NCBI GenBank assembly: GCA_017616785.1
Contig: JAFZXK010000005.1
Coordinates: 7,906-71,905 of the forward strand
DNA from: Alphaproteobacteria bacterium
GTDB taxonomy: Bacteria; Pseudomonadota; Alphaproteobacteria; Rs-D84
DNA: 64,000 bases
Reading direction: 5' to 3'
A program made the position numbers and the translations under genes. Shown piece by piece: positions 10,506 to 61,630 of the stretch. Under the pieces are notes generated by a model. It searched no databases. It was not told the DNA's origin and saw nothing but the letters and a program-made list of their open reading frames with translations. Position 1 is the stretch's first letter. Each line of letters starts with the position of its first letter.

Positions 10506-10559
10506 CCTCTGTGATAACAGGGGAATTATATCATAAAATCGGTGTAAATGATAGGATTT
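10506..10559. repeat. Direct repeat copy 1 (copy 2 at 11283-11337)
   Basis: cctctg.ga.aacagggg aattatatcataaaatcggtgtaaa..ataggattt shared by both copies. Confidence 0.85.
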
Positions 10560-11282: not shown

Positions 11283-11337
11283 CCTCTGCGACAACAGGGG
11301 GAATTATATCATAAAATCGGTGTAAAGAATAGGATTT
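11283..11337. repeat. Direct repeat copy 2 (copy 1 at 10506-10559)
   Basis: Direct alignment with a few substitutions. Confidence 0.85.
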
Positions 11338-39158: not shown

Positions 39159-39244
39159 AACATTGCCACTATAATACATTTAGGAAAGTTTGTGCAACAG
39201 AAAAATTGTTATTTGACAATATATTTATGCCGATGGATTTTTTT

Positions 39245-39538
39245 GCACGATTGCTAATTGTTTATTCGCGGATTGTGTGCTGCGCTATCGCTCGCACACA
39301 TCCCTTCATCTCCGCGGGTAAAATCAAAAAATCCACCATCCGGTGGATTTTTAAGATAAATTTGCTGTCTTGATAAACAATAATCAATCGTAAATGCAAA
39401 AACTCTACTAAAAATATCCGTTTTCGCACGATTGCTAATTGTTTATTCGCGGATTGTGTGCTGCACTGTCGCTCGCACACATCCCTTCATCTCCGCCGGT
39501 AAAATCAAAAAATCCACCATCCGGTGGATTTTTAAGAT
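39245..39538. repeat. Two ~113 bp direct repeats (39245-39357, 39426-39538), each with an inverted copy of the tRNA-Ser 3' end and a terminator hairpin
   Basis: Near-identical units at a 181 bp period; atcccttcatctccgc(c) is complementary to 39547-39563. Confidence 0.9.
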
Positions 39539-39545
39539 TTTAACA

Positions 39546-39636
39546 TGGCGGAGATGAAGGGATTCGAACCCTTGATACGGTTGCCCGTATACCACATTTC
39601 CAATGTGGCGCACTAGACCAACTATGCGACATCTCC
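39546..39636 (-). tRNA. tRNA-Ser(GGA)
   Basis: Reverse complement ggagatgtcgcatagttgg...ccacattGGAaatgtgg, long variable arm, ggttcgaatccc...cca. Confidence 0.95.
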
Positions 39637-42722: not shown

Positions 42723-42750
42723 TGTGTTCCCTCTTTTTTGTTTGTTGTGT

Positions 42751-42957
42751 AAAAAAACCGTCAAATAGGACGGTCGGGGTGTTGAGAAATCATATAAGAC
42801 GATGACCCCCATGGACTTTATATATACTCCATGGGCACCCCGACAACCGGGGTATCAAGATTTCGGCACAAAACATCGGAAATTTTGCGGATTACGACAT
42901 AATGTGCCGGTCTTATATGGGCTTCTCAGGGCCCCGAACCAGATTCCCGTCTGATTC
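42751..42957 (-). ncRNA. Structured leader RNA, copy A (c4/ash-like attenuator candidate)
   Basis: P0 gaatcaga/tctggttc; P1 cgggg-tgagaa-catataagac / gtcttatatg-ttctca-ccccg; three inner hairpins; terminator accgtc/gacggt+T6; promoter TTGCCC-18-TAGCAT at 42964-42993. Confidence 0.7.
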
Positions 42958-43467: not shown

Positions 43468-43553
43468 TGTTAGTGATTAGTGTTAGTGGGGTGTAAAAAG
43501 AAGAGATATAAAACAACTGGCGCATTCGCGCCAGTTTCACTAACCACTTACAC
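43459..43553. repeat. GTTAGTG short repeats in inverted arrangement around a hairpin
   Basis: gtagtgttagtgattagtgttagtg ... aactggcgc-attc-gcgccagtt ... cactaaccacttacact. Confidence 0.6.
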
Positions 43554-44008
43554 TATCCTTTCATCAACCTTGCACGGGATTTTTCCCATTCGCGGCGCTT
43601 TATCGTTTCACGCTTGTCCGCACGGTTTTTACCATGGCCGATACCAAGCAAGACCTTTAACCGCCCACGATTATTAAAATACATTTTCAGCGGATAAATT
43701 GTTGCACCACGGTCATTCAATTTACCAATCATGCGATTTATTTGCGCCCTGTGCAGCAACAATCGACGCGGTCGGCGTTCATCAAAGTTCGTAATGCGCG
43801 CCGCCGTGGGTAATTTCTGAATTTCCACACCCGCAAGGTATAAATTCGTCCCGCGCCGCTGTACAAACCCGTCCACAATTGTGACCAGGCCATAACGCAG
43901 CGATTTAACTTCGGCCCCCGTTAATTCAATACCCGCCTCTATCGTGTCTTCGGTAACATAACAGAACCGCGCTTTGCGGTTTTCAGAAACAGCACCAAAT
44001 TTTATCAT
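43553..44008 (-). CDS. smpB: SsrA-binding protein
   Basis: ENRKARF, EAGIELTGAEVKSLR, RRLLLHR, DKRETIKRREW. Confidence 0.95.
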   Translation of the reverse strand: MIKFGAVSENRKARFCYVTEDTIEAGIELTGAEVKSLRYGLVTIVDGFVQRRGTNLYLAGVEIQKLPTAARITNFDERRPRRLLLHRAQINRMIGKLNDRGATIYPLKMYFNNRGRLKVLLGIGHGKNRADKRETIKRREWEKSRARLMKG

Positions 44009-44119
44009 ACTGCGTGGCATAATGTGTGATTCTATATCAAAAAACGACAAAAGCCAAATAATTTTTGCATTTAGTGCGTATTTGGTGTATAATTATATCA
44101 TAAACCAAAAGGATAAAGT

Positions 44120-44548
44120 ATGACGCCAGAAGAAATAGCGCTTGATTTTGTTACACGGTTTGAAGAGCAAATAAAAAAAACATTGGGGGTTCACACTTTT
44201 GATGACAGAAGGGCCGCCGGGCATATTGCACAATTTGTGTATGATAATCCGGTGGTGATGGATTATTATGATAATATAACTGTCAATCCACGTGTTGTTA
44301 CGATGCTTGTTGCTTCGTTACACGATGTGTTGGTCCCAGAAAGGATTCGCGAAGAACGGCGCCGCGTCGATTATATAAACAAAGTCCTAAAACAGAAAAA
44401 ATCCGGCAAAATGCCCGCGCGTTTGTATGATGATTTTATGCGCGTTTATTTTTCAGGAACAGTTGATACCGAAGATTTGACACGGGGACCCAATGTTGAT
44501 TTTAACTCGCTGGCATTAAAGCGTGCTTCGGGAATTTTTAATAGATAA
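44120..44548 (+). CDS. Hypothetical protein, paralog of 44886..45254 (ends FNR)
   Basis: SD aaagga; MTxxExAxxFVxxxEExIKxxLGxxTFD shared. Confidence 0.8.
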   Translation: MTPEEIALDFVTRFEEQIKKTLGVHTFDDRRAAGHIAQFVYDNPVVMDYYDNITVNPRVVTMLVASLHDVLVPERIREERRRVDYINKVLKQKKSGKMPARLYDDFMRVYFSGTVDTEDLTRGPNVDFNSLALKRASGIFNR

Positions 44549-44570
44549 CATGGTTTCGGACACGGAAATA

Positions 44571-44653
44571 CTATAACTCTATCCTTGGATAGAGTTTTTT
44601 TACATTTTCCATAACTATATCACACATTTTTTCAAATGGAACATTTTTTATTT
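44571..44653 (-). pseudogene. Displaced second allele of the tatD 3' end (direct repeat of 45272-45354)
   Basis: Encodes ...KNVPFEKMCDIVMENVKKLYPRIEL* versus LYPKIEF* in tatD; contains the aactctatc/gatagagtt hairpin plus T-run. Confidence 0.9.
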
Positions 44654-44689
44654 GTTGCAATGTTTCAGTATTTGTTACACAATTCGCGT

Positions 44690-44860
44690 GGGTATAGAGG
44701 TTTCTGTATCTTGGGCGTGACAACCCATCGGATGTGTCGGCGACGACATAAAAAATCCCAACATAGGTTGGGTGTCTGTGAATATATTGAATAAACAGAG
44801 CAATTCATCCGATTGTTGTCAACCCCCAACCGCTAACTTTATTCGGCGGTTGATTTAGTT
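44690..44860 (+). ncRNA. Structured leader RNA, copy B
   Basis: P0 ggtataga/tctgtatc; P1 ttggg-tgacaac-atcggatg / catccgat-gttgtca-cccaa; three inner hairpins; aaccgc/gcggtt hairpin; promoter TTGCAA-17-CACAAT from 44655. Confidence 0.7.
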
Positions 44861-44885
44861 TAACAAACAACAAAAAGGATAAAAA

Positions 44886-45254
44886 ATGACACTACAAGAA
44901 TTGGCGACAAATTTCGTTAATAAATATGAAGAAGAAATAAAGCGACAATTGGGTATAAAAACATTTGATAAAAAGGTCGCAATAGAATGTGTTGCGGACT
45001 TTTTTGAACGCGAAACCGCAGCATTGATTAATAACGCCATCAATAGAGATGCTTTTTCATCCAAGAATGGTATGATTAAGGATATTATTGGTTCCATGTA
45101 TGAGCAACTAGTGCCGGCACACATTCGTAAATTACATGAGGCCACCGCAAAAATAGAAGGACAAAACTTGGGCAAGGTCTTGACACAGATAGTAAAAACT
45201 GCCACAAAAGCAGCCATAGAAAACGCCGATAATACCATAGTTGTTGGAAGGTAA
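44886..45254 (+). CDS. Hypothetical protein, paralog of 44120..44548 (ends VGR)
   Basis: SD aaagga; shared N-terminal pattern and LVPxxIR. Confidence 0.8.
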   Translation: MTLQELATNFVNKYEEEIKRQLGIKTFDKKVAIECVADFFERETAALINNAINRDAFSSKNGMIKDIIGSMYEQLVPAHIRKLHEATAKIEGQNLGKVLTQIVKTATKAAIENADNTIVVGR

Positions 45255-45271
45255 AATTAAATTTTACCGAT

Positions 45272-46039
45272 TCAAAACTCTATCTTTGGATAGAGTTTTT
45301 TTACATTTTCCATAACTATATCACACATTTTTTCAAAAGGAACATTTTTTATTTCCGCCAAAACACGCGCCGTGTCAACCACATAGGCCGGTTCGCAAAT
45401 TTTGCCGCGGTGTGGCACGGGTGCACAATACGGGCTATCGGTTTCGACAATGATACGGTCAATTGGGATACGCGCAAATGTGTCGCGAATTTCGCCCGCA
45501 TTCTTAAAGGTTAAAATGCCACTTGCCGAAAAAAAGTATCCGCAATCCAACATTTTTTTGGCCAAATCATAACTTGATGTAAAGCAATGCATAACGCCAT
45601 AGATGTCCGAATAACGCGACAGAATTTCAAATGTATCGCTTTCCGCGTCACGCGTATGAATCGCGACCGGCAGCCCCGTACGCCACGCCATGTCCAGTTG
45701 CCTTTCGAACAATTCGATTTGCGCATTCCGCGTATCCGCGCCCATTTCGTGGTAATCAAGCCCTATTTCCCCAACCGCCAATACTTTCGGATTCGCCAAG
45801 ATTTCATCCGTAATGTAATCCGACGGATTTGTTCCCGCGTGTTCGGGGTGAATTCCAATTGTTGCAAAAATATTATCGCGTTCGTTTGCCAATTTCACCG
45901 CGGGTAAAATATCAACCGGGTCCGCCGTCGGGCAAATTATATATTTCACACCGGCCGCGGTTGCGCGCGCAATTACCGCATCCATGCCACCAACGGACGA
46001 AAAATCATAGGTTAAATGGCAATGTGTATCTATAAGCAT
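45272..46039 (-). CDS. tatD: TatD family DNase
   Basis: IDTHCHL, GIHP, GEIGLDY, IHTRDA, MHCF, ETDSPY. Confidence 0.95.
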   Translation of the reverse strand: MLIDTHCHLTYDFSSVGGMDAVIARATAAGVKYIICPTADPVDILPAVKLANERDNIFATIGIHPEHAGTNPSDYITDEILANPKVLAVGEIGLDYHEMGADTRNAQIELFERQLDMAWRTGLPVAIHTRDAESDTFEILSRYSDIYGVMHCFTSSYDLAKKMLDCGYFFSASGILTFKNAGEIRDTFARIPIDRIIVETDSPYCAPVPHRGKICEPAYVVDTARVLAEIKNVPFEKMCDIVMENVKKLYPKIEF

Positions 46040-46932
46040 TTTTGTATTTCCAATATAATCTTGAACAATGAGATTTCTGGTTCCAAATTCACGCGGTTTA
46101 TGTCCGCAATCGCCTTTGTTGCGACCGGGTAAAGTTCCGCCAAATTAAAGTGTGCAATCACATCAAGCAATATTCCATAAAGTTCCGGCGATGGCGCAAT
46201 TTGCCGCGCGATATTCATTGCATCCGACTGTGTTGCGTGCCGATTCGTTACAAATTCAACAACGCGTTCATATATCGCGTCGCCCCCAGATTGCTTTAGG
46301 TTCGCAATGCGTCCAAAAGACCCGTTGGCAAGGCGCAATGTTTCATCATCAACTATTTCATCCGGCATAAACCGCGCACAAAGGGTTCGCAAATCAGAAA
46401 TCGACAGCGGTCGCATCTTTTCCACGCGGGCACGCGAACGCACGGTTGGCAAAACACTTGATAATTGATGCGTAACCAACAGAAATAATGTTTTTGCCGG
46501 CGGTTCTTCCAATAACTTTAATATCGCATTCGCCGCAGCAGTTGTAAGTGCATCCACAGAATCAATCAACACAACACGCCACGCGCCCGACATTGACGAA
46601 AGTTGCATCTTTTCAATTGTTGCACGCACAGTATAGACCGAAATCGATTTTCCATCGGATTTAACGCGGCCGTCCTTGTCAATATTCCGGTCCATGTCGA
46701 TAATAAAAAAGTCACCTATATTACCATAAACCATGCGCGCAATCTGATAGGCAAGCGTTGCTTTGCCAATGCCACGCGGACCGCACAGCATCCACACTGG
46801 GTGCAACGGATGGGCGTCGCGATTTTGCCACGCATCCATAAACGCACGCAATGTTGCATCATGTCCAATCGTATTATTATTGTCCATCGGATGCGGAAAT
46901 TCGTAAACGGGCGCATTTGATTTCCGTGCCAT
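46030..46932 (-). CDS. holB: DNA polymerase III delta' subunit
   Basis: GPRGIGKATLA, AANAILKLLEEPP, LPTVRSR; start MARKS at 46932. Confidence 0.88.
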   Translation of the reverse strand: MARKSNAPVYEFPHPMDNNNTIGHDATLRAFMDAWQNRDAHPLHPVWMLCGPRGIGKATLAYQIARMVYGNIGDFFIIDMDRNIDKDGRVKSDGKSISVYTVRATIEKMQLSSMSGAWRVVLIDSVDALTTAAANAILKLLEEPPAKTLFLLVTHQLSSVLPTVRSRARVEKMRPLSISDLRTLCARFMPDEIVDDETLRLANGSFGRIANLKQSGGDAIYERVVEFVTNRHATQSDAMNIARQIAPSPELYGILLDVIAHFNLAELYPVATKAIADINRVNLEPEISLFKIILEIQKCL

Positions 46933-46933
46933 T

Positions 46934-48109
46934 TTAACGCCCCATAAGCATAGTAACAATATTTCGCCAAGCGCGCGCAAGGAAACGAACGCGCCCGACA
47001 TCAGATTTGGCGATTAAATTTGTTCGTGCGATAACATCGCCGTTGCGTTCGGCAATAACCTCGCCCAATATATCGCCGGCGCGAATTGGCGCGGGCATTG
47101 GGTCGGTATATCGCGCAAGCACGCGAACACCGGATAGGCCAACATTCTTTGGCACCGTAATCGCAAGTGTTTGGCCAACAGTTCCCATTACCGTATTGCT
47201 GCGTCCATACCAGGTCGGCACCGCGGTTACATCTTCGCCTGGGCGATAGAAAACCTTTGTGGTTGTTGTGGAAAAACCGTGCGACAGTAAACCCTTCATT
47301 TCCGTAGCCAATGCATCATGCCCCTTGCCATAAAAGCCATTTATAACGCCGATTAGACGCCGGCCACCGGACGTGGCACTTGCCACCATACCATATCCGC
47401 CCTTGTCCGTATGCCCGGTCTTAAGGCCGTCCGCACCCGACATTATGAACAGCAATTTATTATAATTCACCGTATGCGTTTTGCCCCAATCGCGACACCA
47501 ATCGGTTTTGTATTCGCCGAACTCAAAACGCTTGGTCGCGAACATTGGATACAAATCGGGATAATCAGAAATTATATGATATGCCAATGTCGCAAGTTCC
47601 CGACTTGTCATCAAGTTTTTATCGTTGGGCAAACCACTCGCATTCCCAAAGGTCGATAGCGGCATGCCGATCGAACGCGCCTTGGCCGTCATTAAATCAG
47701 TAAACTTTTCTTCCGTTTCGGCAAGTTTTTCCGCAACAACGACCGACGCATCACCACCCGACAGGACAATAAGGCCCAAAATCAAATCGCGCACAGATAT
47801 ATCCTGGCCCGCCGACAAGCAAATCTTGCTTGCCGGATACCAAAGCGGATTTTGATAGTCCGCATTTCTGCCAACCGGGAAACGGTCGTCCAAAGAAACC
47901 CGACCATCCTTGACCGCGTCAAACAAAACCGTCAGCGTCATCAGTTTTAACATTGACGACGGCGGCATAAGTTCATCCGCGGCAATCGATACAATTTCCG
48001 CCCCCGAATCATAGTCGATTAAAAAGGCGGATTTTGCCTTGGTCTTAAAATCTGCAAAAGCCGGCGCGGCGCAAAGAATCAGTAAAAGTGCGAAAATTTT
48101 TTGTTTCAT
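46934..48109 (-). CDS. dacA: D-alanyl-D-alanine carboxypeptidase
   Basis: SMLK (SxxK), SGGDAS, LKTGHT, C-terminal PBP5 domain. Confidence 0.9.
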   Translation of the reverse strand: MKQKIFALLLILCAAPAFADFKTKAKSAFLIDYDSGAEIVSIAADELMPPSSMLKLMTLTVLFDAVKDGRVSLDDRFPVGRNADYQNPLWYPASKICLSAGQDISVRDLILGLIVLSGGDASVVVAEKLAETEEKFTDLMTAKARSIGMPLSTFGNASGLPNDKNLMTSRELATLAYHIISDYPDLYPMFATKRFEFGEYKTDWCRDWGKTHTVNYNKLLFIMSGADGLKTGHTDKGGYGMVASATSGGRRLIGVINGFYGKGHDALATEMKGLLSHGFSTTTTKVFYRPGEDVTAVPTWYGRSNTVMGTVGQTLAITVPKNVGLSGVRVLARYTDPMPAPIRAGDILGEVIAERNGDVIARTNLIAKSDVGRVRFLARAWRNIVTMLMGR

Positions 48110-48152
48110 GATGTATGTATCATAACAATATATATCACCTTTTCAAATGATT

Positions 48153-48398
48153 TTTTAATTTGATTTTTGTCGCGCGTGGGGATAAAATGTTTCGGTGCGA
48201 AATCAAAGGGGGCCGGCATGTTTGATACAGAAAAATTAAAATCTTTTTCTTGGATAAATGTTGGAAACCCCGATCACGATGATTTTGAAAAACTGCAAGA
48301 TGAATACAAGATTGACGAAGATACAATATCTGATATTTTAGACCCGGACGAACAACCGCGCGAAGAATTTTTTTGAACATACTGTATTATATCGCGGA
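48153..48398 (+). pseudogene. Displaced, internally deleted allele of the corA promoter and 5' end
   Basis: 48153-48361 aligns to 50714-50922 (10 mismatches); 48362-48398 aligns to 51106-51143. Confidence 0.92.
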
Positions 48399-49721
48399 TT
48401 GTAACATAGGATTACGAAAGCTCGTTTGTGATTCGTTTGCCCCACCTGCAATTGCGCACTTTGTCGCGCAGTTTTTTATACATGTCGCTAAACTCGCGGT
48501 GTAGGCAGAATACACCCATTTAGATATAGCAGGATCCGTCATTTTACAATAACAATATTTTCCGTTCCCCCCAGACACAAACGAAGTAGAATACGTTTGC
48601 TGAATTTCTAACTGCTTAGAATCCGCAGATATGTTTCCAATCACAGCAGAAGTAGGGACAACCGAGCTACATATTGCCGAACCATTAATTGTAAAGGTCT
48701 TTGTGGAATCAGAAGAATTTATAAAGTCCAGTCGCCAAGTCCCTTTGGAAAGCGAATCCAAAATTCCGGTATTACAAACCTGAGTATTGGTACTAGGAGT
48801 TCCAAAATTTTGGCCACAATATCCAGTTGCAGCGGCATATTGGCCAGCATTATCAACTATGTCTAAATATGATGGGGTGGTCGTTACAAGCCGCACTGTA
48901 TTCTCTAAGCGCCATAATGAACCATTGGAATCTGGAATTCCGTTTTCATCAACCTGCGTAAATTCATGATTTACGGCATCTATTATTGCGTTATTTAATG
49001 TAACAGCATCTATAAAACCCTGATCCGTCTTGTTGGTTGTCGTATATATTGGCGCCGCACCCAGCATCCCACCCTCGCCACCTTCGGCGGCTTGGGTCAT
49101 AACATAGTTTGCCGAACCATTTGATATATATTGTTTTCTATTTACCCCCGTAAGCACCGCACCCGTCGTAGGTATAGTTGTTGATGTTGTATCAGAATAA
49201 TCCCCACTTGTCGCGTTTGGGGTTCCAAGTGTCGCAACAATTCCGCGTGGCGCCCCCAATTGTTCATCAGTTCCCGTTGTTGGGAAGGTTATTGCAGAAT
49301 TTGTCGCAACAGTGATCTTGTCTAATTTTGAATTTATACCGTCGTCAACATATTTCTTTGATGTTGGTATCTTCCTGTCCCCTAGTGCCGCCCATTGTGC
49401 AGTAAGAGTGAGAACCAGTGTATCACGAGTTTTGCAATTAGTATTTGTATATGTGTCCCCAGGTTGCATTATATCGCCACTGGCGGCATATGATGCGCTG
49501 CTGCTGGTAATAAGCCATCCTTCAAAACTATAATCAGATTTTGAACAAGTATTTTCAGCCACAACAAAACTACCCGTGTCGGCATTTGCCGTATGACTTT
49601 CAGGTGCTGGTCCATTTGCACCACTACCACAACTGTATACAACTTTGCACGGACCAGCCGCAAACCCAGGCAAAGATAATAAAATTCCACCAATTACAAG
49701 TAAGAGTTTATTCTGTCTCAT
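48387..49721 (-). CDS. Exported protein: InlB B-repeat-like domain, SKKYVD neck-like region, Cys-rich C-terminal domain
   Basis: Signal peptide; YSFEGW...TLTAQW; IPTSKKYVD; CSS..YCYC..WVY..CIKNCATKC..FR. Confidence 0.75.
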   Translation of the reverse strand: MRQNKLLLVIGGILLSLPGFAAGPCKVVYSCGSGANGPAPESHTANADTGSFVVAENTCSKSDYSFEGWLITSSSASYAASGDIMQPGDTYTNTNCKTRDTLVLTLTAQWAALGDRKIPTSKKYVDDGINSKLDKITVATNSAITFPTTGTDEQLGAPRGIVATLGTPNATSGDYSDTTSTTIPTTGAVLTGVNRKQYISNGSANYVMTQAAEGGEGGMLGAAPIYTTTNKTDQGFIDAVTLNNAIIDAVNHEFTQVDENGIPDSNGSLWRLENTVRLVTTTPSYLDIVDNAGQYAAATGYCGQNFGTPSTNTQVCNTGILDSLSKGTWRLDFINSSDSTKTFTINGSAICSSVVPTSAVIGNISADSKQLEIQQTYSTSFVSGGNGKYCYCKMTDPAISKWVYSAYTASLATCIKNCATKCAIAGGANESQTSFRNPMLQSAI

Positions 49722-49744
49722 CTTCTTCTATCCCCTCTTGTTTA

Positions 49745-50344
49745 TTATGGATTTGTGGTTTGTGGAACATAAACCCCATTCAATTCTTTTACAAGATATG
49801 TCAAACAATGGTCACCATTCGGATCTGTCTGTGCATTATATTCGCCTTCCCAACTATTGCATTCAAGGTGGGCATTAAATCCATTTGCAATCGCTGCATT
49901 AAGGTGCCCTGCCGAAACAAGTGCGTCTGTTTGCCCACTGTATGCCGCATTTGTTTTATATGTTGCACGTGCCGAAACTGTACCCTCAGTTCCAGTATAA
50001 GTGACCACATCACCAGTATTCCCAGCATCAATTTTTTCTTGCTTTAAATTTAAACTTGTGTTTATCCCCCCAGTAGTAACCAATGTTGTTGCTGTGGTAC
50101 TTGTTCCAAGGGTTGTTACAATCTGTCTCGCGCCAGGCGTCGCCCCAGTGGTTGTCGGATGGGTCATAACATAACTGCTCCCAGATGCCCTGCCTGGGAT
50201 TTTATCCTGCTTAGTTTCAACTTGGGTATCCACATAATATTTTGATGCAACGGTTTTTTTATCAGTTCCGGTATCCGAATATGCTGTACCAATAACAACA
50301 ACACATGCCATGACACCACTAAACAGCACGGTTTTTATACTCAT
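49745..50344 (-). CDS. Exported protein with SKYYVD/KQ neck-like repeats
   Basis: SD ggagg; signal peptide; KKTVASKYYVDTQVETKQDKIP, near-identical to the 41355 protein motif. Confidence 0.78.
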   Translation of the reverse strand: MSIKTVLFSGVMACVVVIGTAYSDTGTDKKTVASKYYVDTQVETKQDKIPGRASGSSYVMTHPTTTGATPGARQIVTTLGTSTTATTLVTTGGINTSLNLKQEKIDAGNTGDVVTYTGTEGTVSARATYKTNAAYSGQTDALVSAGHLNAAIANGFNAHLECNSWEGEYNAQTDPNGDHCLTYLVKELNGVYVPQTTNP

Positions 50345-50378
50345 TGCCCTTACCTCCCTTTCTATGATATGCTATGTT

Positions 50379-50595
50379 AAATCAAAATACCGCCAAGAAA
50401 CATGACGGTCGGGCATTTTCAAGGTCATACTCTGAATGACTCTGTGGTATTTGGTAAACCTGTTGTATCCCCACAGATGCCCGACCCACAGGTCAGGCAA
50501 ACGGTGCAAAGCGCTAATGTAATAAAATTCATTGTCAATGCGTTTGCACCGCAGAGTAGAGTCCTTGAAAGACCCAAACCAAACTTCCTTGGTTC
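50379..50595 (-). ncRNA. Structured leader RNA, copy C
   Basis: P0 gaaccaa/ttggttt; P1 ttggg-tttcaagg-tactctg / cagagta-ccttgaaa-cccga; three inner hairpins; accgtca/tggcggt hairpin; promoter TTGACC-18-TAGCAT at 50602-50631. Confidence 0.7.
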
Positions 50596-50778
50596 GCAAT
50601 CATGCTAACAAAAATCATCAAGCTAGGTCAAGTGCTTTTTTAAATCTGTATTTCTAAGGAAATCCCGGCTTCCTGACATTTTGAACACTCTTTTATAAAT
50701 TGTGTCCACACAATTTTAATTTGATTTTTGTCGCGCGTGGGGATAAAATGTTTCGGTGCGAAATCAAAGGGGGTCGGC

Positions 50779-51663
50779 ATGTTTGATACAGAAAAATTAA
50801 AATCTTTTTCTTGGATAAATGTTGCGAACCCTGATCATGATGATTTTGAAAAACTGCAAGATGAATACAAGATTGACGAAGATACAATCTCTGACATTTT
50901 GGACCCTGATGAACAACCGCGCATAGAGGTTGAAGATGATTACAAGGTTATAATTGTCCGCTTTCCCATTGTGAATCGCGAAACTGATACCCAGTGGCAT
51001 ACGGAACCGCTTTCCATTATTTATTCAACCAATCGCGTTATTACTGTGTGTCGCAAACGTTGCGATATATTGGACAAAATTAAACGCGCCGAAAAAACAT
51101 CACGTGAAGAATTTATTTTGAACATAATGTATTATATCGCGGAATCTTATTTGCGTTGTCTAAAGGAATTAAATCGTCGTGTTGTGGAATCCAAGAAAAA
51201 CCTGCAACAACAAATTAGGAAGCGCGAATTGCTGGCATTACTCGATGTGGAAAACAGTTATACTCTTTATATGACGGGGTTAAAGGGCAACCTTTCGGTT
51301 TTGGATAAATTGGAAAAGGTTCGCGGATTTGCAAAAAACGACGAATGCGTGGAACTGATTGAAGATTCGCGTATCGAACTGTCCCAGGGGATTGAGGTCG
51401 TAACCAGTTATACCAAGATGCTAAAATCCATCAAGGAAACATTTGAAAGCGTCATCAATATGGATTCGAACACATATATTAACCGCCTGACCATGTGGAA
51501 CATTATATTAATGTTGCCGACACTGGTTGTGGGGTATTATGGGATGAATGTCGCTCTGCCCTTTGCGGAACATGGCGACACAGGCATCGTTATTTTCGTG
51601 ATTATTATGGCGCTGTTGGTTGGATACGCACTGTTTATATTTGTACGTAAACGCATAATTTAA
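50779..51663 (+). CDS. corA: CorA family Mg2+ transporter
   Basis: ILDPDEQPRIE, PTLVVGYYGMNV (GMN signature), two C-terminal TMs. Confidence 0.93.
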   Translation: MFDTEKLKSFSWINVANPDHDDFEKLQDEYKIDEDTISDILDPDEQPRIEVEDDYKVIIVRFPIVNRETDTQWHTEPLSIIYSTNRVITVCRKRCDILDKIKRAEKTSREEFILNIMYYIAESYLRCLKELNRRVVESKKNLQQQIRKRELLALLDVENSYTLYMTGLKGNLSVLDKLEKVRGFAKNDECVELIEDSRIELSQGIEVVTSYTKMLKSIKETFESVINMDSNTYINRLTMWNIILMLPTLVVGYYGMNVALPFAEHGDTGIVIFVIIMALLVGYALFIFVRKRII

Positions 51664-52214
51664 TTTAGCACCGCCGAAATTTTCGCAAAGTTTTTATCGG
51701 CGTCCGCATCACTCACATCAACCGCGGAAAATTTTATATTCGGCGCGTGCCGCAGCCATTCTATTGCCGGCATCGTAATTTTCCAGAAATTATCAAGACG
51801 ACGGCGCACAACCGCGGCGTCCGCATCATCGGCGCGACCGCCACCTTCGCGGATTCTTTTTTCGATACGCGACAGCATCACCGATTCCGGAACATCCAAA
51901 TAAATCACATGAATATCAAATTTATGCGCGAAAGTTTCGACAATCCACTTTGCCTGACCAAGCGTACGGGGAAATCCGTCAAGAATTAAATCAGAATCCG
52001 TATCAAAATGCGTGGCAAGCAATTCAAACAAGTCGGCGTCCGGCACCAATTCACCACGCGCAATAATTTGTGAAAGCCGCGATTCCGGCGGCAAAGCACG
52101 CAAAATTGCGCCCGTTTCCATATATTCGTATTTTCCGCGCTCCATTATACGGCGCGCAAATGTGCCCTTGCCGGTGCCCTGACCACCCATCATAATAATC
52201 ATTTTTGGTTTCAT
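51660..52214 (-). CDS. adk: Adenylate kinase (short type)
   Basis: GGQGTGKGT, GELVPD, LDGFPRTLGQA, RADD. Confidence 0.88.
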   Translation of the reverse strand: MKPKMIIMMGGQGTGKGTFARRIMERGKYEYMETGAILRALPPESRLSQIIARGELVPDADLFELLATHFDTDSDLILDGFPRTLGQAKWIVETFAHKFDIHVIYLDVPESVMLSRIEKRIREGGGRADDADAAVVRRRLDNFWKITMPAIEWLRHAPNIKFSAVDVSDADADKNFAKISAVLN

Positions 52215-52249
52215 TTTCGTTCCTTTTGTCCCCAAAATTATACCACAAA

Positions 52250-52275
52250 AAAATCCCCATGGCTATGGGGATTTT
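52250..52275 (-). terminator. Terminator after rpsA
   Basis: aaaatccccat-ggct-atggggatttt. Confidence 0.75.
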
Positions 52276-52301
52276 ATTTGTTTTGAAAACTTTGCCTTTG
52301 A

Positions 52302-53990
52302 TTATTTACGGCTGTTTTCAATCGCTGCACCAAGAATATCGCCAAGGACGGAACCACTGTCGGCCTCGTTCGCGTATTCTTTGACCGCTTGCTTTTCAAG
52401 TGTAACCTGAAGCGCGCGGATGGACAATTTCACATTGTTCCCTTCCACGGATACCACGGATGCCTCAACCGTGTCGCCAACATGGAACTTGGATGTATCC
52501 TGTTCAGATTTTTCACGCGACAAATCGGTCCGACGGATTGTGCCCTTGATATCATTTGGCAAATCCAAAATCAATTCATCAGGTGTAACTTCGGACACAG
52601 TGCCCGACAAAACCGCACCTTTCTTAATAGATGCCGCGTTGTTGTCCGCGCCCGCCGTCAATTGTTTAATACCCAATGTAACGCGTTCTTTTTCCGGATT
52701 GATGTCCAAGATTTTCGCGGTTACTTCTTGGCCACGGACGAATTTTTTCAATTCTTCTTCGTCCAAACGGTTCCAAGAAAGGTCAGAAATGTGAACCATA
52801 CCGTCCAATTCCGGCGTCAATGCCACGAACAAACCGAATTCGGTTGTATTCTTAATCGGACCGGTAATAACATCGCCAACATTGTGTGTTTCGGCAAATT
52901 GCTTCCACGGATTTGGTTGCAATTGTTTATACCCAAGTGATATGCGGCGTTTTTCTTGGTCAATATCCAAAACCATAACATTGACTTCTTGGCCAACCTG
53001 TAAAACCTTGGACGGATGGATGTTTTTGTTCGTCCATGAAAGTTCAGACATATGGACCAAACCTTCGATATTGTTCCCCAGGTCGATAAACGCACCATAA
53101 TCGGTAACGGATGAAACCTTGCCGGTAACAGTGTCGCCAACGTTGAATGCGCGCGATGCGGTTTCCCATGGGTCTTCTTCCAATTGTTTTGCGCCAAGTG
53201 AAATGCGGTGTGTTTCCGGGTCAAATTGGATAACCTTGACCTTTATCTTTTCACCGACATGCACCAATTCACGCGGATGATTCACGCGTTTCCAAGACAA
53301 ATCGGTTACATGCAACAAACCGTCAATACCACCAAGGTCGATAAACACACCATAATCAGTGATGTTTTTAACCGTACCTTCCAGTACCGCGCCAAGTTCG
53401 ATGTTCTTTAACGCCTCTTTCTGGGCGGCGGCGATTGTATCAGATTGTATCGCGCGACGGGAAACAATTGCGTTTGTGCGCAACGCATCCATTTTCAACA
53501 CGCGGAATTTGTCTTTTAACCCAATCATAGATTTTGCATCGCGGATTGGTTTATGATCAACCTGGCTTGAGGGCATAAATGCGAATACGCCATTGATATC
53601 GACGGTATAGCCACCACGAACCACATCGATAATTGTACCTTCGGGATCTTCGCCCGCGGCAACGATTTTTTCAAGTTCTTTCCATGCCTTTTCGGCGCGT
53701 GCCTTGGCATAGGACAGAACCGCCGTTCCTTCACGCGATTCGTAACGTTCGACGAACACATCAATAATGTCGCCAACGGCCGGCACAGATGCGCCAAATT
53801 CACGCAACGGAACGCGACCTTCGGATTTAAGGCCAACATCAACCAAAACGAAATCGCCACGGATATCTTTGACCGTGCCCTTGGTCGCGTAACCTTGCAA
53901 AGTTTCTTGTTTACCATAGTTTTCATCAAACATTTTGACGAAATCTTCACCCGCGATCGGGTTAAATAAATCTTTGGATAAATCTTTCAT
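52302..53990 (-). CDS. rpsA: 30S ribosomal protein S1
   Basis: Repeated S1 domains (VDVGLKSEG, NITDYGVFIDLGGIDGLLHVTD). Confidence 0.97.
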   Translation of the reverse strand: MKDLSKDLFNPIAGEDFVKMFDENYGKQETLQGYATKGTVKDIRGDFVLVDVGLKSEGRVPLREFGASVPAVGDIIDVFVERYESREGTAVLSYAKARAEKAWKELEKIVAAGEDPEGTIIDVVRGGYTVDINGVFAFMPSSQVDHKPIRDAKSMIGLKDKFRVLKMDALRTNAIVSRRAIQSDTIAAAQKEALKNIELGAVLEGTVKNITDYGVFIDLGGIDGLLHVTDLSWKRVNHPRELVHVGEKIKVKVIQFDPETHRISLGAKQLEEDPWETASRAFNVGDTVTGKVSSVTDYGAFIDLGNNIEGLVHMSELSWTNKNIHPSKVLQVGQEVNVMVLDIDQEKRRISLGYKQLQPNPWKQFAETHNVGDVITGPIKNTTEFGLFVALTPELDGMVHISDLSWNRLDEEELKKFVRGQEVTAKILDINPEKERVTLGIKQLTAGADNNAASIKKGAVLSGTVSEVTPDELILDLPNDIKGTIRRTDLSREKSEQDTSKFHVGDTVEASVVSVEGNNVKLSIRALQVTLEKQAVKEYANEADSGSVLGDILGAAIENSRK

Positions 53991-54155
53991 TAGAATTCAT
54001 ACAAAGTTTGCCGTCGCAGCCATATTTGTTATAGGAAAAAACCGCGAGGTCTTGCGGGGTTAATCGGACTGATTTCGTGCCCGCCCACGGAAATCGGGGT
54101 ACATTGTATACACTTTTTAACAGAAAAGCAAGAAAAAACATAGTGTTGTTTTCTA

Positions 54156-54274
54156 TTGCTTTTTATTGCGATTTGTGATATAATTTGTCTCACAAAGGCG
54201 GGCGATTTTATCGGCCGTTTTTTATTTGACCGTGCATCATGCGCGGTTTTTTTGTTATAACAAAAGGAGAAAAT
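54156..54274 (+). promoter_or_regulatory. Promoter plus two terminator-like hairpins upstream of the tail-fibre gene
   Basis: TTGCTT-17-TATAAT; ggcgg..gccgtttttt and accgtgca/tgcgcggtttttt; SD aaggag. Confidence 0.55.
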
Positions 54275-55165
54275 ATGCAAAAAGTATCATACATGGGAAA
54301 CGGCGAAACAACCGAGTTTAGTTTTACTTTCCCTTATTATGAAAACACAAATATTATCGTAACCAAAAATGGTGCGACCACGACGGGCTATCAAATTATC
54401 GGAACCAGTGGCGGATTGGATGCGGATATTCCCTATGTCGGTGGCAAGGTAGTTTTTGAAACCGCACCAACGGTGATGGACAGTATAACCATTGCACGCA
54501 GTTTACCGCTGGAACGCGTAATCGATTATCAACCAACGGCGAAAATCGATCCCACAACCGTAAATCAAGATATGAACTATATGATGGAAATCTTGAAAGA
54601 CATGCAGGACCAACTGGACACTTTCCACACGCAATACGCCGAAATTGCCGACAGCGAATCCGCCGCGACACTTTTGGCGCGAATAGACGCAATAAGCGAA
54701 GACATTACATCCGTAAGTGCACAAATAACGGGCCTTGGTGATATAAGCACATTGCGGCAATCTGTTACCGATTTGTCAACGACTGTTGGCGGTCACACAA
54801 CAAGTATTGGTTCACTAAACACACTTACAAGTGGCATGACTGATTATGTTATCGCGTCACAATCGCCAACGGCGGACAACAACTATACTTGGTACCGTAA
54901 ATATAAAAGTGGCTGGGTTGAACAAGGTGGCTATCGTGTGGCAACGACTAATTCTGGCGAGCAAATTACACTGCCTGTGGAAATGGCCGACGCACATTAT
55001 CTAATAAACATGACCACAAATAATGATACAAGTGGCGGCACATATCATTATCCTGTGTGGGAAAACCAGACCGCAACAGGATTCCAAGCAGAATTGGTTT
55101 ACCAAGGAAATTGGTATCCTGGGGCTTTCTATTGGGAAGTCAGGGGCAAAATGGCGACCGAATAA
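54275..55165 (+). CDS. Phage T7-like tail fibre protein (stand-alone)
   Basis: MQKVSYMGNGETTEFSFTFPY (T7 gp17-type N-terminus), coiled coil, WYRKYKSGWVEQGG C-terminal domain. Confidence 0.75.
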   Translation: MQKVSYMGNGETTEFSFTFPYYENTNIIVTKNGATTTGYQIIGTSGGLDADIPYVGGKVVFETAPTVMDSITIARSLPLERVIDYQPTAKIDPTTVNQDMNYMMEILKDMQDQLDTFHTQYAEIADSESAATLLARIDAISEDITSVSAQITGLGDISTLRQSVTDLSTTVGGHTTSIGSLNTLTSGMTDYVIASQSPTADNNYTWYRKYKSGWVEQGGYRVATTNSGEQITLPVEMADAHYLINMTTNNDTSGGTYHYPVWENQTATGFQAELVYQGNWYPGAFYWEVRGKMATE

Positions 55166-55180
55166 ATATTATACTGATGC

Positions 55181-55210
55181 GAATAAATCCACCATGTGGT
55201 GGATTTATTC
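55181..55210. terminator. Bidirectional terminator
   Basis: gaataaatccacc-atgt-ggtggatttattc. Confidence 0.75.
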
Positions 55211-56014
55211 ATTATAACTGTGCATAGATACCGTTTTATATTTATCTTTGTTTGGCATTTTATCGTATTCAGTAAAAACGATGCTTTTATTATACCATTC
55301 CCGTATAATCATATATTTCCTATGATTATAATACATATAATTACCGTATGTTTCATATTCGGAAAACGAAGATATTTGCGCGGGGTCAAGGTTATCGATT
55401 ATCGCATCAACCCACTTTTTATGTGTGTATTCTTCTATTTTTTGCTTCATTTCTGATAAAAAAGATTTCTTGAACAGCATGTGGTGCGCGACAAAAGATA
55501 ATGCAAACCGTTTGTTTAATCCTAATAATTTTTTATAACTCGTAAAATATGGTGCATGATATTCATCGGAACAATCGAAAACCATTTTGTTTCGTTTTAC
55601 AAAAAATTGTTTGCGTGTGAATACGGTATCAGAATCCGCGACCAATATGTATTCATTTTTGCAAATTTTGTCACAGTTTAATTTCAATAATTGTTGGAAA
55701 ATCCATCCAGACCTATCCATGCCACAAGGTTTATAATCTATATCCTTGACGGTTATATCCAACACCGTGTTTTCATCTATGAACGTGCAGTTATATTTGT
55801 TGCAAAAACCCCTAATAAAATCAGAATCCGGTGCGACCAGATATATGTTATCTATGTGATGCTGAATATTCGCAAGTGACGGTATAACCAAAGATAATTT
55901 ATTCAAATCCTTGTCGGTTGTTGGTATTACAACGTCAATATGTCCATGTTTTCTTGATGCGAAACATTTATTATAAAACGATAAAGTTTTTGATTTTATG
56001 TACTTGTGTTTCAT
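55205..56014 (-). CDS. DUF6492-like glycosyltransferase-related protein
   Basis: RSGWIFQQLLKL, DSDTVF, SFSEYETYGNY. Confidence 0.7.
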   Translation of the reverse strand: MKHKYIKSKTLSFYNKCFASRKHGHIDVVIPTTDKDLNKLSLVIPSLANIQHHIDNIYLVAPDSDFIRGFCNKYNCTFIDENTVLDITVKDIDYKPCGMDRSGWIFQQLLKLNCDKICKNEYILVADSDTVFTRKQFFVKRNKMVFDCSDEYHAPYFTSYKKLLGLNKRFALSFVAHHMLFKKSFLSEMKQKIEEYTHKKWVDAIIDNLDPAQISSFSEYETYGNYMYYNHRKYMIIREWYNKSIVFTEYDKMPNKDKYKTVSMHSYNE

Positions 56015-56016
56015 AC

Positions 56017-56820
56017 CTAAATCCTTTGCCATTTTATCGGAACAATATCGGTTAATTGCCCATCCGCAAACCATTGTACCGGTGCGACAACAATTTTATC
56101 TGAATTTTGATTAAGCCATGCGCCCCACCAAGAAAAACTGCTGTTTGCGATGATATTATGTTTACAATTTGCCATTAACCACATATCCCATGCACTATCA
56201 CGACCATGATTTATATCAACAAATGTACATGGAACATCAAGTTTTAGATTATCTGTCACCCACTGTGGGTCATCAGAGAAAATAAAAAAGTGTGGATCTG
56301 TTACATGTTCTGCGATAAATTTTATTGCACGCGCATAATAATCCAAATCACAAAGGCCGTGAATATGTTGCAATTTAACATAATCACCACGCCGGACATG
56401 TATCGAAACACTGTTTGTTTTATGTATTAAATCCAAGATTTTTTGATTTTGTTGGTTCGGTTTTTGCCTTGGCACAAAATCTTTTACTAATCGTTCACGA
56501 ATTGGTTCATAATAACGCGCCACCTGAAAATACCCCTCGATAACACCAGCTTTTGTTTTTAACAATTCGGAATTGTAAACATTATATGGTTTTTCAACAT
56601 ATCGTTTTCGTTTAATAACACCAAAAATTTTTGTTTTATTGGTAAGTGCGGGATTTATATTCCAAAAGTCCAATTCGTATTCACGCTGCGCGACATTTGG
56701 ATTGCCACGTGTTTCATCAAACCATGATGTGTCATACTTGACCGTTCCGCCAATTGCAATTCCAAAGGCGTATTGAAACATCTGATTTCCCAAACCACCC
56801 ATCAACCTAATTATTTTCAC
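56017..56820 (-). CDS. Alpha-1,2-fucosyltransferase (GT11)
   Basis: GGLGNQMFQYA, HVRRGDY, FSDDP, NSSFSWWGAWL. Confidence 0.93.
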   Translation of the reverse strand: MKIIRLMGGLGNQMFQYAFGIAIGGTVKYDTSWFDETRGNPNVAQREYELDFWNINPALTNKTKIFGVIKRKRYVEKPYNVYNSELLKTKAGVIEGYFQVARYYEPIRERLVKDFVPRQKPNQQNQKILDLIHKTNSVSIHVRRGDYVKLQHIHGLCDLDYYARAIKFIAEHVTDPHFFIFSDDPQWVTDNLKLDVPCTFVDINHGRDSAWDMWLMANCKHNIIANSSFSWWGAWLNQNSDKIVVAPVQWFADGQLTDIVPIKWQRI

Positions 56821-56822
56821 TT

Positions 56823-57674
56823 TTAATCCTTTACATATCTGTCACGAAAATTATGTCTGGCACTGCGCCGCACGATAAACAAACAAATGATTCTTCCCAA
56901 CCATTTAGGTAACAATAAACCTTGTTTATATTGTCCCCGTGCGCACCCAAGTATATGTTGTTGTTTTTCGACATCGTCGGTCAACATTTTTAGAATATTA
57001 TGTTTTACGCGTTGTGCGGTTTTATATTGTTCCGCCCCATGAACAACCCCTATATTTGCATCTGCCACACGATAGCGCAATAATATTTCCGGCAAATTGT
57101 GAATTTCTGTTATAAAAACCATACGTGACCACAATTCAAAATCTTCGCACCATTTGTAATTGTTATCATATCTAAAACCGTATGTGTCCAACACGGATTT
57201 TCGCATAAATACTGTCGGGTGACCTACATGTTGATCGGCAAGTATGTTAAGTATTTTTATGCGTGTCGGGTGCCTAACAACCCCATGCGCATTTCCAAAA
57301 CGTTCAAACCATGCGCCCAGAACGCTACATTCTGGATGTTCATCCATGTATTTAATCTGTTTTTCAAAACGCATGGGTAAAGAAATGTCGTCACTATCCA
57401 TGCGGGCAATATATTCACCATTGGCCAAATCAAGTCCTTCGTTTAATACACCAACCAATCCTTTGTTCTGTTCATTGTTAACAAACTTTATTCTTTTATC
57501 TTTCCCGGCGTATTCAGAAATTATCTTTGCGGTATTATCCGTTGAACCATCGTTCAAGATGATAAATTCAAAATCAGTAAATGTCTGATTCAAAATAGAT
57601 TCAATCGCTTCGCTGATATATTTCTCAGAATTATATGCCGGCATTACAACAGATATACGTGGTGATTTTTTCAT
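56823..57674 (-). CDS. Glycosyltransferase family 2
   Basis: NDGSTD, YIARMDSDD, EDFELW. Confidence 0.92.
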   Translation of the reverse strand: MKKSPRISVVMPAYNSEKYISEAIESILNQTFTDFEFIILNDGSTDNTAKIISEYAGKDKRIKFVNNEQNKGLVGVLNEGLDLANGEYIARMDSDDISLPMRFEKQIKYMDEHPECSVLGAWFERFGNAHGVVRHPTRIKILNILADQHVGHPTVFMRKSVLDTYGFRYDNNYKWCEDFELWSRMVFITEIHNLPEILLRYRVADANIGVVHGAEQYKTAQRVKHNILKMLTDDVEKQQHILGCARGQYKQGLLLPKWLGRIICLFIVRRSARHNFRDRYVKD

Positions 57675-57686
57675 GATATTTCCCCT

Positions 57687-58517
57687 TTAGTTAAGAAAAC
57701 ACGCTTTGATTCTATGCCGCAAATCCCTGGACGGGATAAAGAAACATAAAATACGAATTAAAAATTTTTTTATCCCGAACCATGGCGACAAATCCCTTTT
57801 TATTGATTTAACAATTTCCGGGAACCTATCATATGTTTTTCGATGGTTTTTGATTATTTGCTTTATCATTTGTTTATGGCGCTTATTATTTCCCGATACA
57901 TTTGAAATAAGAGTTCGTCCATGCTTACGATAATACAGAAACACCTTATCAAATTGAAAAACTGTCCGGCCAAGTTCAATAATAGACAACCAAAAATCCC
58001 AATCTTCTAATCCATACTTCATGTTTGGATTATAGCCCCCTATTTTATTCCAATCGCATTTCCTAAACATATTTGTGCAAACAAGGCAGTTTGCCTTTAA
58101 TATTTCGGGATACGAATATTTTGGCAAATTCCAGATACCCGTTTTATCACCAAAAAATTCTGTAAGTCCGCCACAAATGCCACATTCGCCATGCAAATCT
58201 AAATATTCGGAACATTTCTTTAAAACATCAGAAGAAATTTTATCATCGCAATCAAGTGGCAAAATATATTTGCCCTTCGCGTGTTTTATACCCGTATTTC
58301 TGGCCCCGGGCAACCCCATGTTCTTTTGCCGAATAAGAGTCGTTTTTTCACGACTAAAATTATCCAAGATTTTTTTTGATGCTTCCGCGGTTGAACCATC
58401 ATCAACAACGATTATTTCAAAATCATGGGTCGTTTGGCCCAAAACAGAATTCACACAATCGTCCAAGAATTCCGCTTGATTAAAACAGGGTATAATTACA
58501 CTAATTTTTGGTGGCAT
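57687..58517 (-). CDS. Glycosyltransferase family 2
   Basis: VDDGST, ILPLDCDD, LEDWDFW. Confidence 0.92.
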   Translation of the reverse strand: MPPKISVIIPCFNQAEFLDDCVNSVLGQTTHDFEIIVVDDGSTAEASKKILDNFSREKTTLIRQKNMGLPGARNTGIKHAKGKYILPLDCDDKISSDVLKKCSEYLDLHGECGICGGLTEFFGDKTGIWNLPKYSYPEILKANCLVCTNMFRKCDWNKIGGYNPNMKYGLEDWDFWLSIIELGRTVFQFDKVFLYYRKHGRTLISNVSGNNKRHKQMIKQIIKNHRKTYDRFPEIVKSIKRDLSPWFGIKKFLIRILCFFIPSRDLRHRIKACFLN

Positions 58518-60615: not shown

Positions 60616-60619
60616 TGTG

Positions 60620-61474: not shown

Positions 61475-61630
61475 CTTGTATTTCCTGTGATTTAACGCCC
61501 TGAGTTTGCCACCTTTTGTAACAAAATTCAAGTGATAAATAAGCAATCTGGGGTAAAGGTTAGAATTTTGTGGTATTTCCAAAAAAATAGAGTAATATGT
61601 GCCTAACAAAACAGATAAGAGGTAAATAAA

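Follow-up and report, generated by a model that had tools for sequence, protein, structure and literature searches.

In a 64,000-nt stretch of the genome of an uncultured gut alphaproteobacterium (hereafter the window; positions 7906-71905 of contig JAFZXK010000005.1, G000:C18:7906-71905 in our labels, where G000 is the source genome), a 2.3-kb block made of two secreted-protein genes and a leader RNA lies just upstream of corA, bracketed by two different copies of the corA 5′ end. The genome is a metagenome bin of 1.06 Mb in 25 contigs, 94% complete, and coordinates given below without a contig or locus name are window positions. The locus reads dacA (minus strand), a corA 5′ remnant, fib444 and fib199 (both minus), a 369-nt non-coding leader, intact corA (plus), adk (minus), and rpsA (minus). 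The dacA gene (46934-48109) encodes a D-Ala-D-Ala carboxypeptidase (Pfam Peptidase_S11, 2.4e-47, plus PBP5_C), and intact corA (50779-51663) a protein of 294 amino acids (aa) that covers positions 3-292 of the 292 of the Pfam CorA profile (1.2e-51). In the block itself, fib199 (49745-50344, 199 aa) is the first gene of a two-gene operon and fib444 (48387-49721, 444 aa) the second; their names preserve the label “fibre” of the first-pass annotation of this DNA, which was a guess. That annotation placed the block inside corA, a position that we must correct since corA is intact in the present genome and the cassette lies upstream of it. The order corA-adk-rpsA is common in the genus, being found in 5 of 10 fetched corA loci from other species, in none of which (0/10) dacA is adjacent.

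Local alignment and a repeat finder agree that 48153-48361 and 50714-50922 are direct repeats of 209 nt, aligned without gaps and with 10 mismatches, which divide as the first-pass annotation had described. Both copies are in plus orientation and contain the corA promoter region, the 5′ untranslated region (UTR), and codons 1-48, with identical runs of 60, 50, and 50 nt. After the 209-nt match, the left copy skips 50923-51105 (183 nt, in frame) and resumes at 48362-48398, which corresponds to corA 51106-51143. The alignment thus bears out the earlier account of a copy lacking 183 nt plus 1 nt: 48362-48370 equal 51106-51114, base 51115 is then absent, and 48371-48398 equal 51116-51143 with one mismatch (48382/51127) that changes Met to Leu. 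The reading frame of the left copy starts at ATG 48218 and encodes only 52 codons before a frameshift stop at 48374-48376; judged from this frame, the left copy is a broken remnant and not a working allele. Its last 12 nt (48387-48398) are shared by two genes, the plus strand being corA-derived and the minus strand encoding the last three codons and stop of fib444, and corA has these 12 nt again at 51132-51143. A whole-genome search found the corA 5′ end at these two places only, with no third copy. A consensus scan placed a promoter-like TTGATT-17-TAAAAT at 50721-50749 in the right copy and likewise at 48160-48188 in the left one; the scan returned 10 sites against 10.7 expected from shuffles, so the promoters named here are consensus matches only. 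A terminator-like hairpin with a T run (48450-48473, plus strand) is located within the fib444 3′ end, 52 nt past the joint, and could stop transcripts coming from the orphan corA promoter, although such sites do not exceed their chance count.

The differences between the two corA starts are not distributed as expected for a decaying duplicate. With the corA ATG at 50779, one mismatch falls in the 5′ UTR (48213/50774), two in codon 16 (right copy GCG, Ala; left copy GGA, Gly), and seven are synonymous third-position changes in codons 18, 20, 37, 39, 41, 43, and 44. Counted by the Nei-Gojobori method, they amount to eight synonymous and one non-synonymous differences (pS 0.31, pN 0.0085), that is, a non-synonymous to synonymous ratio (dN/dS) of about 0.02, and the probability that at least 8 of 9 coding changes fall at codon position 3 is 0.001 under a one-third null. 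Because of this excess at third positions and the low dN/dS, the copies represent two alleles rather than a fresh duplicate in decay, which upholds the earlier reading of divergence under purifying selection. Codons 1-48 of the left copy show no sign of drift, and its damage consists of the 183-nt gap, the 1-nt loss, and the Met-to-Leu change in the last 37 nt. Of the “two different functional corA alleles” announced by the first-pass annotation, the difference therefore stands, whereas the function of the left copy does not.

To place the locus among its relatives, we scanned public metagenome contigs with CorA and obtained 80 loci (labelled L0xx), 25 related ones including the corA 5′ end. 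None of these 25 has that end twice, so the arrangement is not one that all relatives carry. In the nearest loci CorA is 96-99% identical and the DNA about 81-88% identical, which indicates other species. Four of them (L057, L060, L070, and L103) have the order tatD-holB-dacA-corA(-adk-rpsA) with a single corA and no insert. Their alignments pass without interruption from dacA across 48153 into the left copy, and they fit the right copy just as well from 50714 on, where homology resumes to continue through corA-adk-rpsA; the cassette has no counterpart in them. Since dacA stands directly beside a single corA in all four, they are the empty sites that an insertion implies, and the block in the window is the insertion. 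On the left of the insert the window stays collinear with L057 and L070 for about 8 kb, and on the right for 3-5 kb; dacA, which adjoins corA in the four loci, is on this comparison the native left neighbour of corA in the sub-clade. The right border of the insert coincides with the start of the conserved corA promoter region, and the point 65 nt upstream of the corA ATG is, as far as the compared loci indicate, a general border. Two loci (L058, 951-1695, and L059, 475-1198) have a different gene of ~200 aa, on the minus strand, exactly at this border between dacA and corA, with a terminator-like hairpin and no flank duplication. Fibre-like genes lie divergently just upstream of corA in L062 and L063, the arrangement that we propose below for the donor, and in L065 a fib199/fib444-like pair adjoins an inverted dacA block. 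Across the relatives, both the dacA|corA and the smpB|tatD sites are empty or occupied by one gene or by another cassette.

The relatives also suggest which of the two alleles is foreign. Over 144 coding bases, the left allele is the nearer one to the closest relatives (left versus right differences: L103 and L056, 9 vs 14; L060, 16 vs 22; L064, 17 vs 23) and the right allele to other lineages (right versus left: L061, 16 vs 22; L127, 24 vs 27). The left copy is native-like along its full length, at 7 of the 9 polymorphic coding sites, and a crossover beyond +131 would still fit. Among relatives, codon 16 occurs both as Ala and as Gly, with Gly the common state. Since the flanks are collinear with L057 and L070 and the left allele is nearer the closest relatives, we take dacA-corA as the backbone and the 5′ part of the right copy as imported; the right allele (Ala16) is thus probably the incoming one, and the left allele (Gly16) the native-like one.

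Neither integrase nor transposase is encoded between the copies according to the list of open reading frames (ORFs) and to Pfam, PHROGs, and NCBIfam, in line with the first-pass annotation, and the repeat finder detected no inverted repeats at the block ends. The nearest of the seven tyrosine-recombinase hits of the genome is about 18 kb away, near 29790-30245.

Evidence on the physical continuity of the locus comes from contigs of four public sequencing runs (X1, X2, X4, and X7), built with 31-letter words and mapped onto window positions 43500-53500; the runs holding the locus are animal-gut metagenomes. One X2 piece (record 11, 47096-48315) begins in dacA, reaches the left allele, and has 0 differences. 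The joint between remnant and fib444 is crossed in X1 (record 6, 48298-50472, 0 differences), X2 (record 12), and X4 (record 20), so that three runs, drawn from two studies, connect the cassette to a remnant carrying the 183-nt gap. A further X1 piece (record 7, 50859-51447) ties the right allele to the remainder of corA. Across the locus, depth is even: 15.5 for dacA, 15.9 for the cassette, 17.6 for corA, and 16.1 for adk in X1, and about 5-6.5 in X2. X7 has a share of words of 0.40, yet at the locus only conserved parts of rpsA matched.

X4, which comes from another study, offers a view of the same cassette in a different strain. Its flanks differ from the window at 20 of 637 positions in tatD, 34 of 434 in dacA, 35 of 507 in corA, and 24 of 530 in adk, whereas 48357-48790 shows only 2 differences in 434 positions and has both the joint and the 183-nt gap of the window. 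Immediately to the left of 48357, 6 odd letters and 37 letters agree better with the right allele than with the left one. Other public assemblies (protein variants labelled P0002, P0024, and P0028) add four further fib444 variants from the 90%-identity cluster of this protein, of which one is truncated at 322 aa, and a remnant peptide of 52 residues identical to ours (P0024). For the remnant ORF (P0024) and for the cassette variant P0002 alike, the longest contig has 7749 nt, which is three times the length of the unit; it is probably one and the same contig. Judged from these comparisons, strains seem to exchange the cassette as a unit, through ordinary homologous recombination in corA and the flanking arms.

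A second insertion of the same topology is found upstream, at tatD (44575-45354). It consists of a 79-nt tatD 3′ fragment (44575-44653), a leader (44737-44866, plus strand; 34.5 bits), a 122-aa gene (44886-45254, plus), and a full tatD starting with the repeat (45276-45354), the two 79-nt pieces being 97% identical. Relatives lack this insert: in L057 a 142-aa gene (p142) directly precedes tatD, and in L060 and L070 smpB does. As the tatD pieces are 97% identical and the two small proteins (the 142-aa neighbour and the 122-aa one) only about 35%, this points to import and not to internal duplication.

Taken together, these data are in our judgement well explained, and quite probably so, by an insertion-duplication carried out by the general recombination of the host rather than by a dedicated recombinase, with DNA coming from a related lineage. 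The ancestor of the lineage would have had the order dacA-corA-adk, and the incoming DNA, from a related lineage, would have carried a leader-controlled two-gene surface operon divergently upstream of corA. A first, homologous exchange would have occurred within corA, and a second, illegitimate joint would have connected the fib444 3′ end to corA around codon 120, at the 12-nt overlap. The recipient corA start (-65 to +365) would in this way have been displaced to the left of the cassette, to become the remnant that later lost 183 nt plus 1 nt, and the incoming corA promoter and 5′ end would now head the intact gene. Since only products with a whole corA would survive, the duplication itself would be explained. 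An allele of fib444 with 84% identity (P0028, seven contigs, among them one of 42 kb) has the same six C-terminal residues, and other homologues match fib444 in length at this end and resemble it in their final residues, so that the fib444 tail is probably native and the 12 nt a candidate microhomology. With these 12 nt present both in corA and at the operon end, a donor whose operon lay upstream of corA would contain a direct repeat spaced by 2.7 kb, able either to release a circle consisting of the cassette and corA -65 to +353 or to direct where a linear fragment ended. The single crossover of a circle in the manner of Campbell and a linear fragment anchored in corA, akin to homology-facilitated illegitimate recombination (HFIR), appear to us about equally probable. 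Thus, where the first-pass annotation had suggested Campbell-type integration of a small DNA from a related strain, the foreign allele, the homologous integration, and the lack of a recombinase are retained, and its small circle goes further than the data, as a linear route gives the same product.

Several observations weigh against this scenario. The search did not find a donor with the cassette in its presumed original setting, and because all complete cassette proteins found share the same tail, the joint may be old or the tail native. Sliding windows of 111 nt compared with 13 relatives gave no signal for the end of an imported tract within corA, and the empty-site relatives are all of other species (about 81-88% nucleotide identity), none conspecific. 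The joint between leader and corA (50713/50714) is crossed by no listed contig piece, the first 60 identical bases are not phased as the contigs use 31-letter words, and the left-allele letters of X2 record 11 could stem from graph simplification. The evidence from X4 is one contig of 477 nt. Finally, the homologues of ComEC and DprA in the genome, which count in favour of the scenario, belong to proteins that are common in bacteria without demonstrated competence.

A more novel reading, which we find rather doubtful, is a self-sufficient mobile cassette without recombinase: a surface operon under leader-RNA control in which a piece of housekeeping gene serves as a portable homology arm, and which would leave by recombination between its 209-nt repeats and enter at corA of other strains. 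If this were true, the corA 5′ alleles would be shuffled at each loop-out and loop-in, with the same logic at the tatD border, the leader RNA would mark an exchangeable pool of surface genes, and transcription from the orphan corA promoter would run antisense into the operon. No circular, excision, or empty-site joints are listed at the locus in X1, X2, X4, or X7, whose contigs drop rare forms.

The topology being symmetric, the mirror image of our scenario has to be considered too: the fibre operon upstream of corA would be ancestral, and the left block (the genes up to dacA plus the corA 5′ fragment) would have been imported and joined illegitimately to the fib444 end. Fibre-like genes do exist upstream of corA in the clade (L062 and L063), and the place and orientation of the dacA block vary among species. 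However, the collinearity of both flanks with L057 and L070 identifies dacA-corA as the backbone, and it is the left allele that is nearer the closest relatives, which together make this version improbable. Even less probable is an assembly artefact, by co-assembly of two strains or by mis-threading, via the 60 identical bases, of a small free circle made up of cassette and corA fragment, as could be suspected in a bin of 25 contigs with identical runs of 60, 50, and 50 nt and with no piece across 50713/50714. The bridging contigs and the even depth disfavour co-assembly, which the first-pass annotation had itself raised as an objection: flank and cassette depths are equal in two samples, and the gapped remnant is attached to the cassette in three runs of two studies. 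Moreover, a 2.56-kb circle without replication gene could presumably not keep a 1:1 ratio to the chromosome, and the 7749-nt contigs of P0024 and P0002 exceed the unit length threefold.

A purely internal origin, by tandem duplication in one genome followed by deletion and by divergence or gene conversion, with no foreign DNA, would account for direct repeats bracketing the block, and other local repeats are present in the genome. It is, nevertheless, very improbable: a remnant is free of selection after duplication, yet 8 of the 9 coding differences are silent; the cassette is absent at the corA site of relatives; the tatD repeat is 97% identical and the paired genes agree at only about 35% of residues; and X4 combines a cassette of 99.5% identity with surroundings that differ by 3-8%. 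Equally hard to accept is the relic of a site-specific or transposable element with its recombinase acting in trans or lost, for, despite the seven tyrosine-recombinase hits of the genome and an integrase island with 49-nt perfect repeats at C25, the repeats are 209+37 nt of a housekeeping gene at 95% and not short identical attachment (att) sites, there are neither terminal inverted repeats nor a recombinase within 18 kb, and the left border, at a 12-nt overlap, is within coding sequence.

The two proteins encoded by the cassette are taken to be secreted. Both fib444 and fib199 have signal-peptide-like N-termini followed by a conserved YVD...KQ motif, and fib444 continues with a fib199-like middle part and a Cys-rich C-terminal domain. 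Neither belongs to a family in Pfam, PHROGs, or NCBIfam. Domain-wise matches to fib444 occur in 82 of 121 genomes of the genus, with full-length homologues at 26-35% identity, and fib199 homologues have 40-52% identity. In all seven best loci from other species the small gene is followed by a fib444-like one (26-52% identity for the pair), at other genomic sites, and in five of these seven the leader lies directly upstream. By contrast with the leader, which matched well, the coding parts of the cassette DNA reached at most 76% over at most 140 nt in 256 other species of the genus, and a genome-contig scan with the 444-aa protein gave one weak locus (31% over residues 357-442). The earlier designation of the two as fibre genes is not sustained, as fib199 obtained only ESM-Atlas feature scores of 0.79-0.84 to phage fibre-repeat clusters, below the 0.9 lead level, and fib444 nothing. 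We searched 50,697 phage records by tblastn without a match for either protein, and IMG/VR yielded a single locus that matches only residues 3-50, nothing usable. A phage tail-fibre identity of the cargo is thus weakly backed, with PHROGs, the phage tblastn, IMG/VR, and the sub-threshold Atlas scores all speaking against it. An AlphaFold2 model of fib199 from an eight-sequence alignment had a mean predicted local distance difference test score of 37, and no known fold could be assigned. Elsewhere in the window, a 308-aa protein (54239-55165, plus strand) has an N-terminal part of 110-200 residues that matches phage tail-fibre and tail-protein PHROGs (best 9.9e-10); its gene adjoins rpsA and a glycosyltransferase cluster (55205-61609) and has an orthologue with 68% identity in L070.

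The leader RNA of the cassette (50373-50516, minus strand; 138.5 bits with our covariance model R1) is located 29 nt upstream of the fib199 start and is predicted to contain an intrinsic terminator (50409-50389) besides three helices. According to the prediction, the stretch immediately 5′ of this terminator can alternatively pair with the 3′ strand of helix 1, which gives an antiterminator structure. A promoter-like site at 50602-50631 (minus strand, 9 of 12 consensus positions with TG) is a weak candidate for the start of the transcript. The covariance model detects 11 copies of this leader, which is about 145 nt long, in the genome, three of them in the window: the one in the cassette, one at a 485-aa fibre-like gene (42741-42873, minus), and the one at the 122-aa gene next to tatD; 54134-54263 (plus) is a weak match. 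Leaders occur in 139 of 151 genomes of the genus, with more than 1000 copies in all (E <= 1e-5). In an alignment of 41 copies, fitted to the covariance model and hence biased towards the structure, pairing holds in 96.3% of cells, with changes on both sides at 20 of 30 pairs; the observed covariation was reached by none of 500 shuffles, and slid controls gave 2-7 pairs. The first gene after 31 strong copies encodes a family 2 glycosyltransferase (GT2) in 12 cases, a Stealth capsule enzyme in five, an autotransporter in two, an outer-membrane barrel in one, a DUF6804 protein in one, and a protein without Pfam family in ten, and the leader lies 2-17 nt upstream of the start codon in 29 of these 31 genes (42 and 91 nt in the other two). 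No family of Rfam 15 matches the leader at its gathering score: the only such matches in the window are two tRNAs, and the best hit within 50300-50800 is rnk_pseudo, with 17.2 bits against a threshold of 55 (E 2.3). The leader would therefore apparently be a large regulatory RNA family absent from Rfam 15, the literature on the leader or the organism not having been searched.

Other repeats in the genome illustrate the variety of brackets around accessory genes. A classical island outside the window (G000:C25:8483-14579) has 49-nt perfect direct repeats 6 kb apart that enclose a 418-aa tyrosine recombinase (Pfam hit C25:13161-13679) together with a leader copy (C25:10044-10195), in contrast to the recombinase-free cassette at corA. 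In the window, a 118-nt direct repeat (39240-39357 and 39421-39538, 97% identical, 181 nt apart) lies beside tRNA-Ser (39546-39636, minus strand) and may be the trace of an integration site. Repeats of 40-55 nt (10506-10559 and 11283-11337, 91-95%) bracket a lone 206-aa ORF (10641-11261), and similar single-gene brackets exist at G000:C18:2860-3807, C17:215-1482 (a GT2 gene), and C11:100212-100878. Of the other local direct repeats, some are att sites of an integrase island or reflect the internal repetition of large proteins. A family of ~300-nt repeats (88-97%) is found at contig ends (C18:1-337, C25:103501-103866, C19:1-304, C20, C9, C24, and C11:232-750), where it probably causes assembly breaks.

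The kind of event recorded at corA is ordinary, a known route of gene gain that is rarely caught so clearly. In the minimal mobile elements of Neisseria, conserved genes form the borders of varied cassettes that are exchanged through flanking homology and have no mobility genes of their own. The dacA|corA and smpB|tatD sites resemble them in being variable, and the difference lies in the clean swap there and the flank duplication here. The term is cited in PMC1538595 as Saunders & Snyder 2002. The anatomy is also that of a Campbell insertion-duplication, with repeats of a target fragment bracketing the insert and no element recombinase: the match of the left copy ends at 48398 (corA +365), and the right copy gives a full CorA. 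Here, however, the case comes from nature, in a gut bacterium that is uncultured; the “vector” amounts to an operon and its leader; the copies are different alleles; and no circle was seen in the contig data. As described for HFIR in Acinetobacter, Streptococcus pneumoniae, and Pseudomonas stutzeri (PMC5361080, PMC3240628), there is one homologous anchor with the other end at what may be a microhomology, and genes without homologue in the recipient are gained. The usual HFIR product, according to the account in PMC3240628, replaces or deletes recipient DNA; at corA, by contrast, recipient DNA was duplicated and not lost, which requires an illegitimate joint inside the anchor gene. The same account reports on Escherichia coli conjugation, where 56 of 60 recombinants sought as HFIR proved to be target duplications of 109-950 bp, assigned to one crossover with a circle. 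HFIR has been proposed for displaced fragments in Vibrio's type VI secretion system (T6SS) arrays (PMC5361080). In T6SS effector-immunity and Rhs arrays, as presented there, a new module likewise sits beside a conserved gene with the old end kept as an orphan, alleles of one genome come from different strains, and no integrase is known to that account; unlike here, the anchor belongs to the same toxin system and the orphan immunity gene is useful, whereas corA is a housekeeping anchor and its remnant dead. Merodiploids arising by transformation in S. pneumoniae also tolerate an insertion thanks to an intact copy alongside, but their duplications are described as 100-900 kb between insertion sequence repeats (PMC3784515), against 0.43 kb here.

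The most novel item at this locus is the leader family, which may be a more valuable lead than the cassette. The locus itself is a natural record of how a gut bacterium with a small genome gains surface genes without integrases or transposons, in which empty sites, alleles, and joint can all be read. A broken gene start beside an intact copy can thus be left behind by recombination with a relative whose genes are arranged differently, a reading that bears on the annotation of metagenome bins and on counts of horizontal transfer. The near-identical cassette in a diverged strain, in turn, hints at gene-specific sweeps of surface genes.

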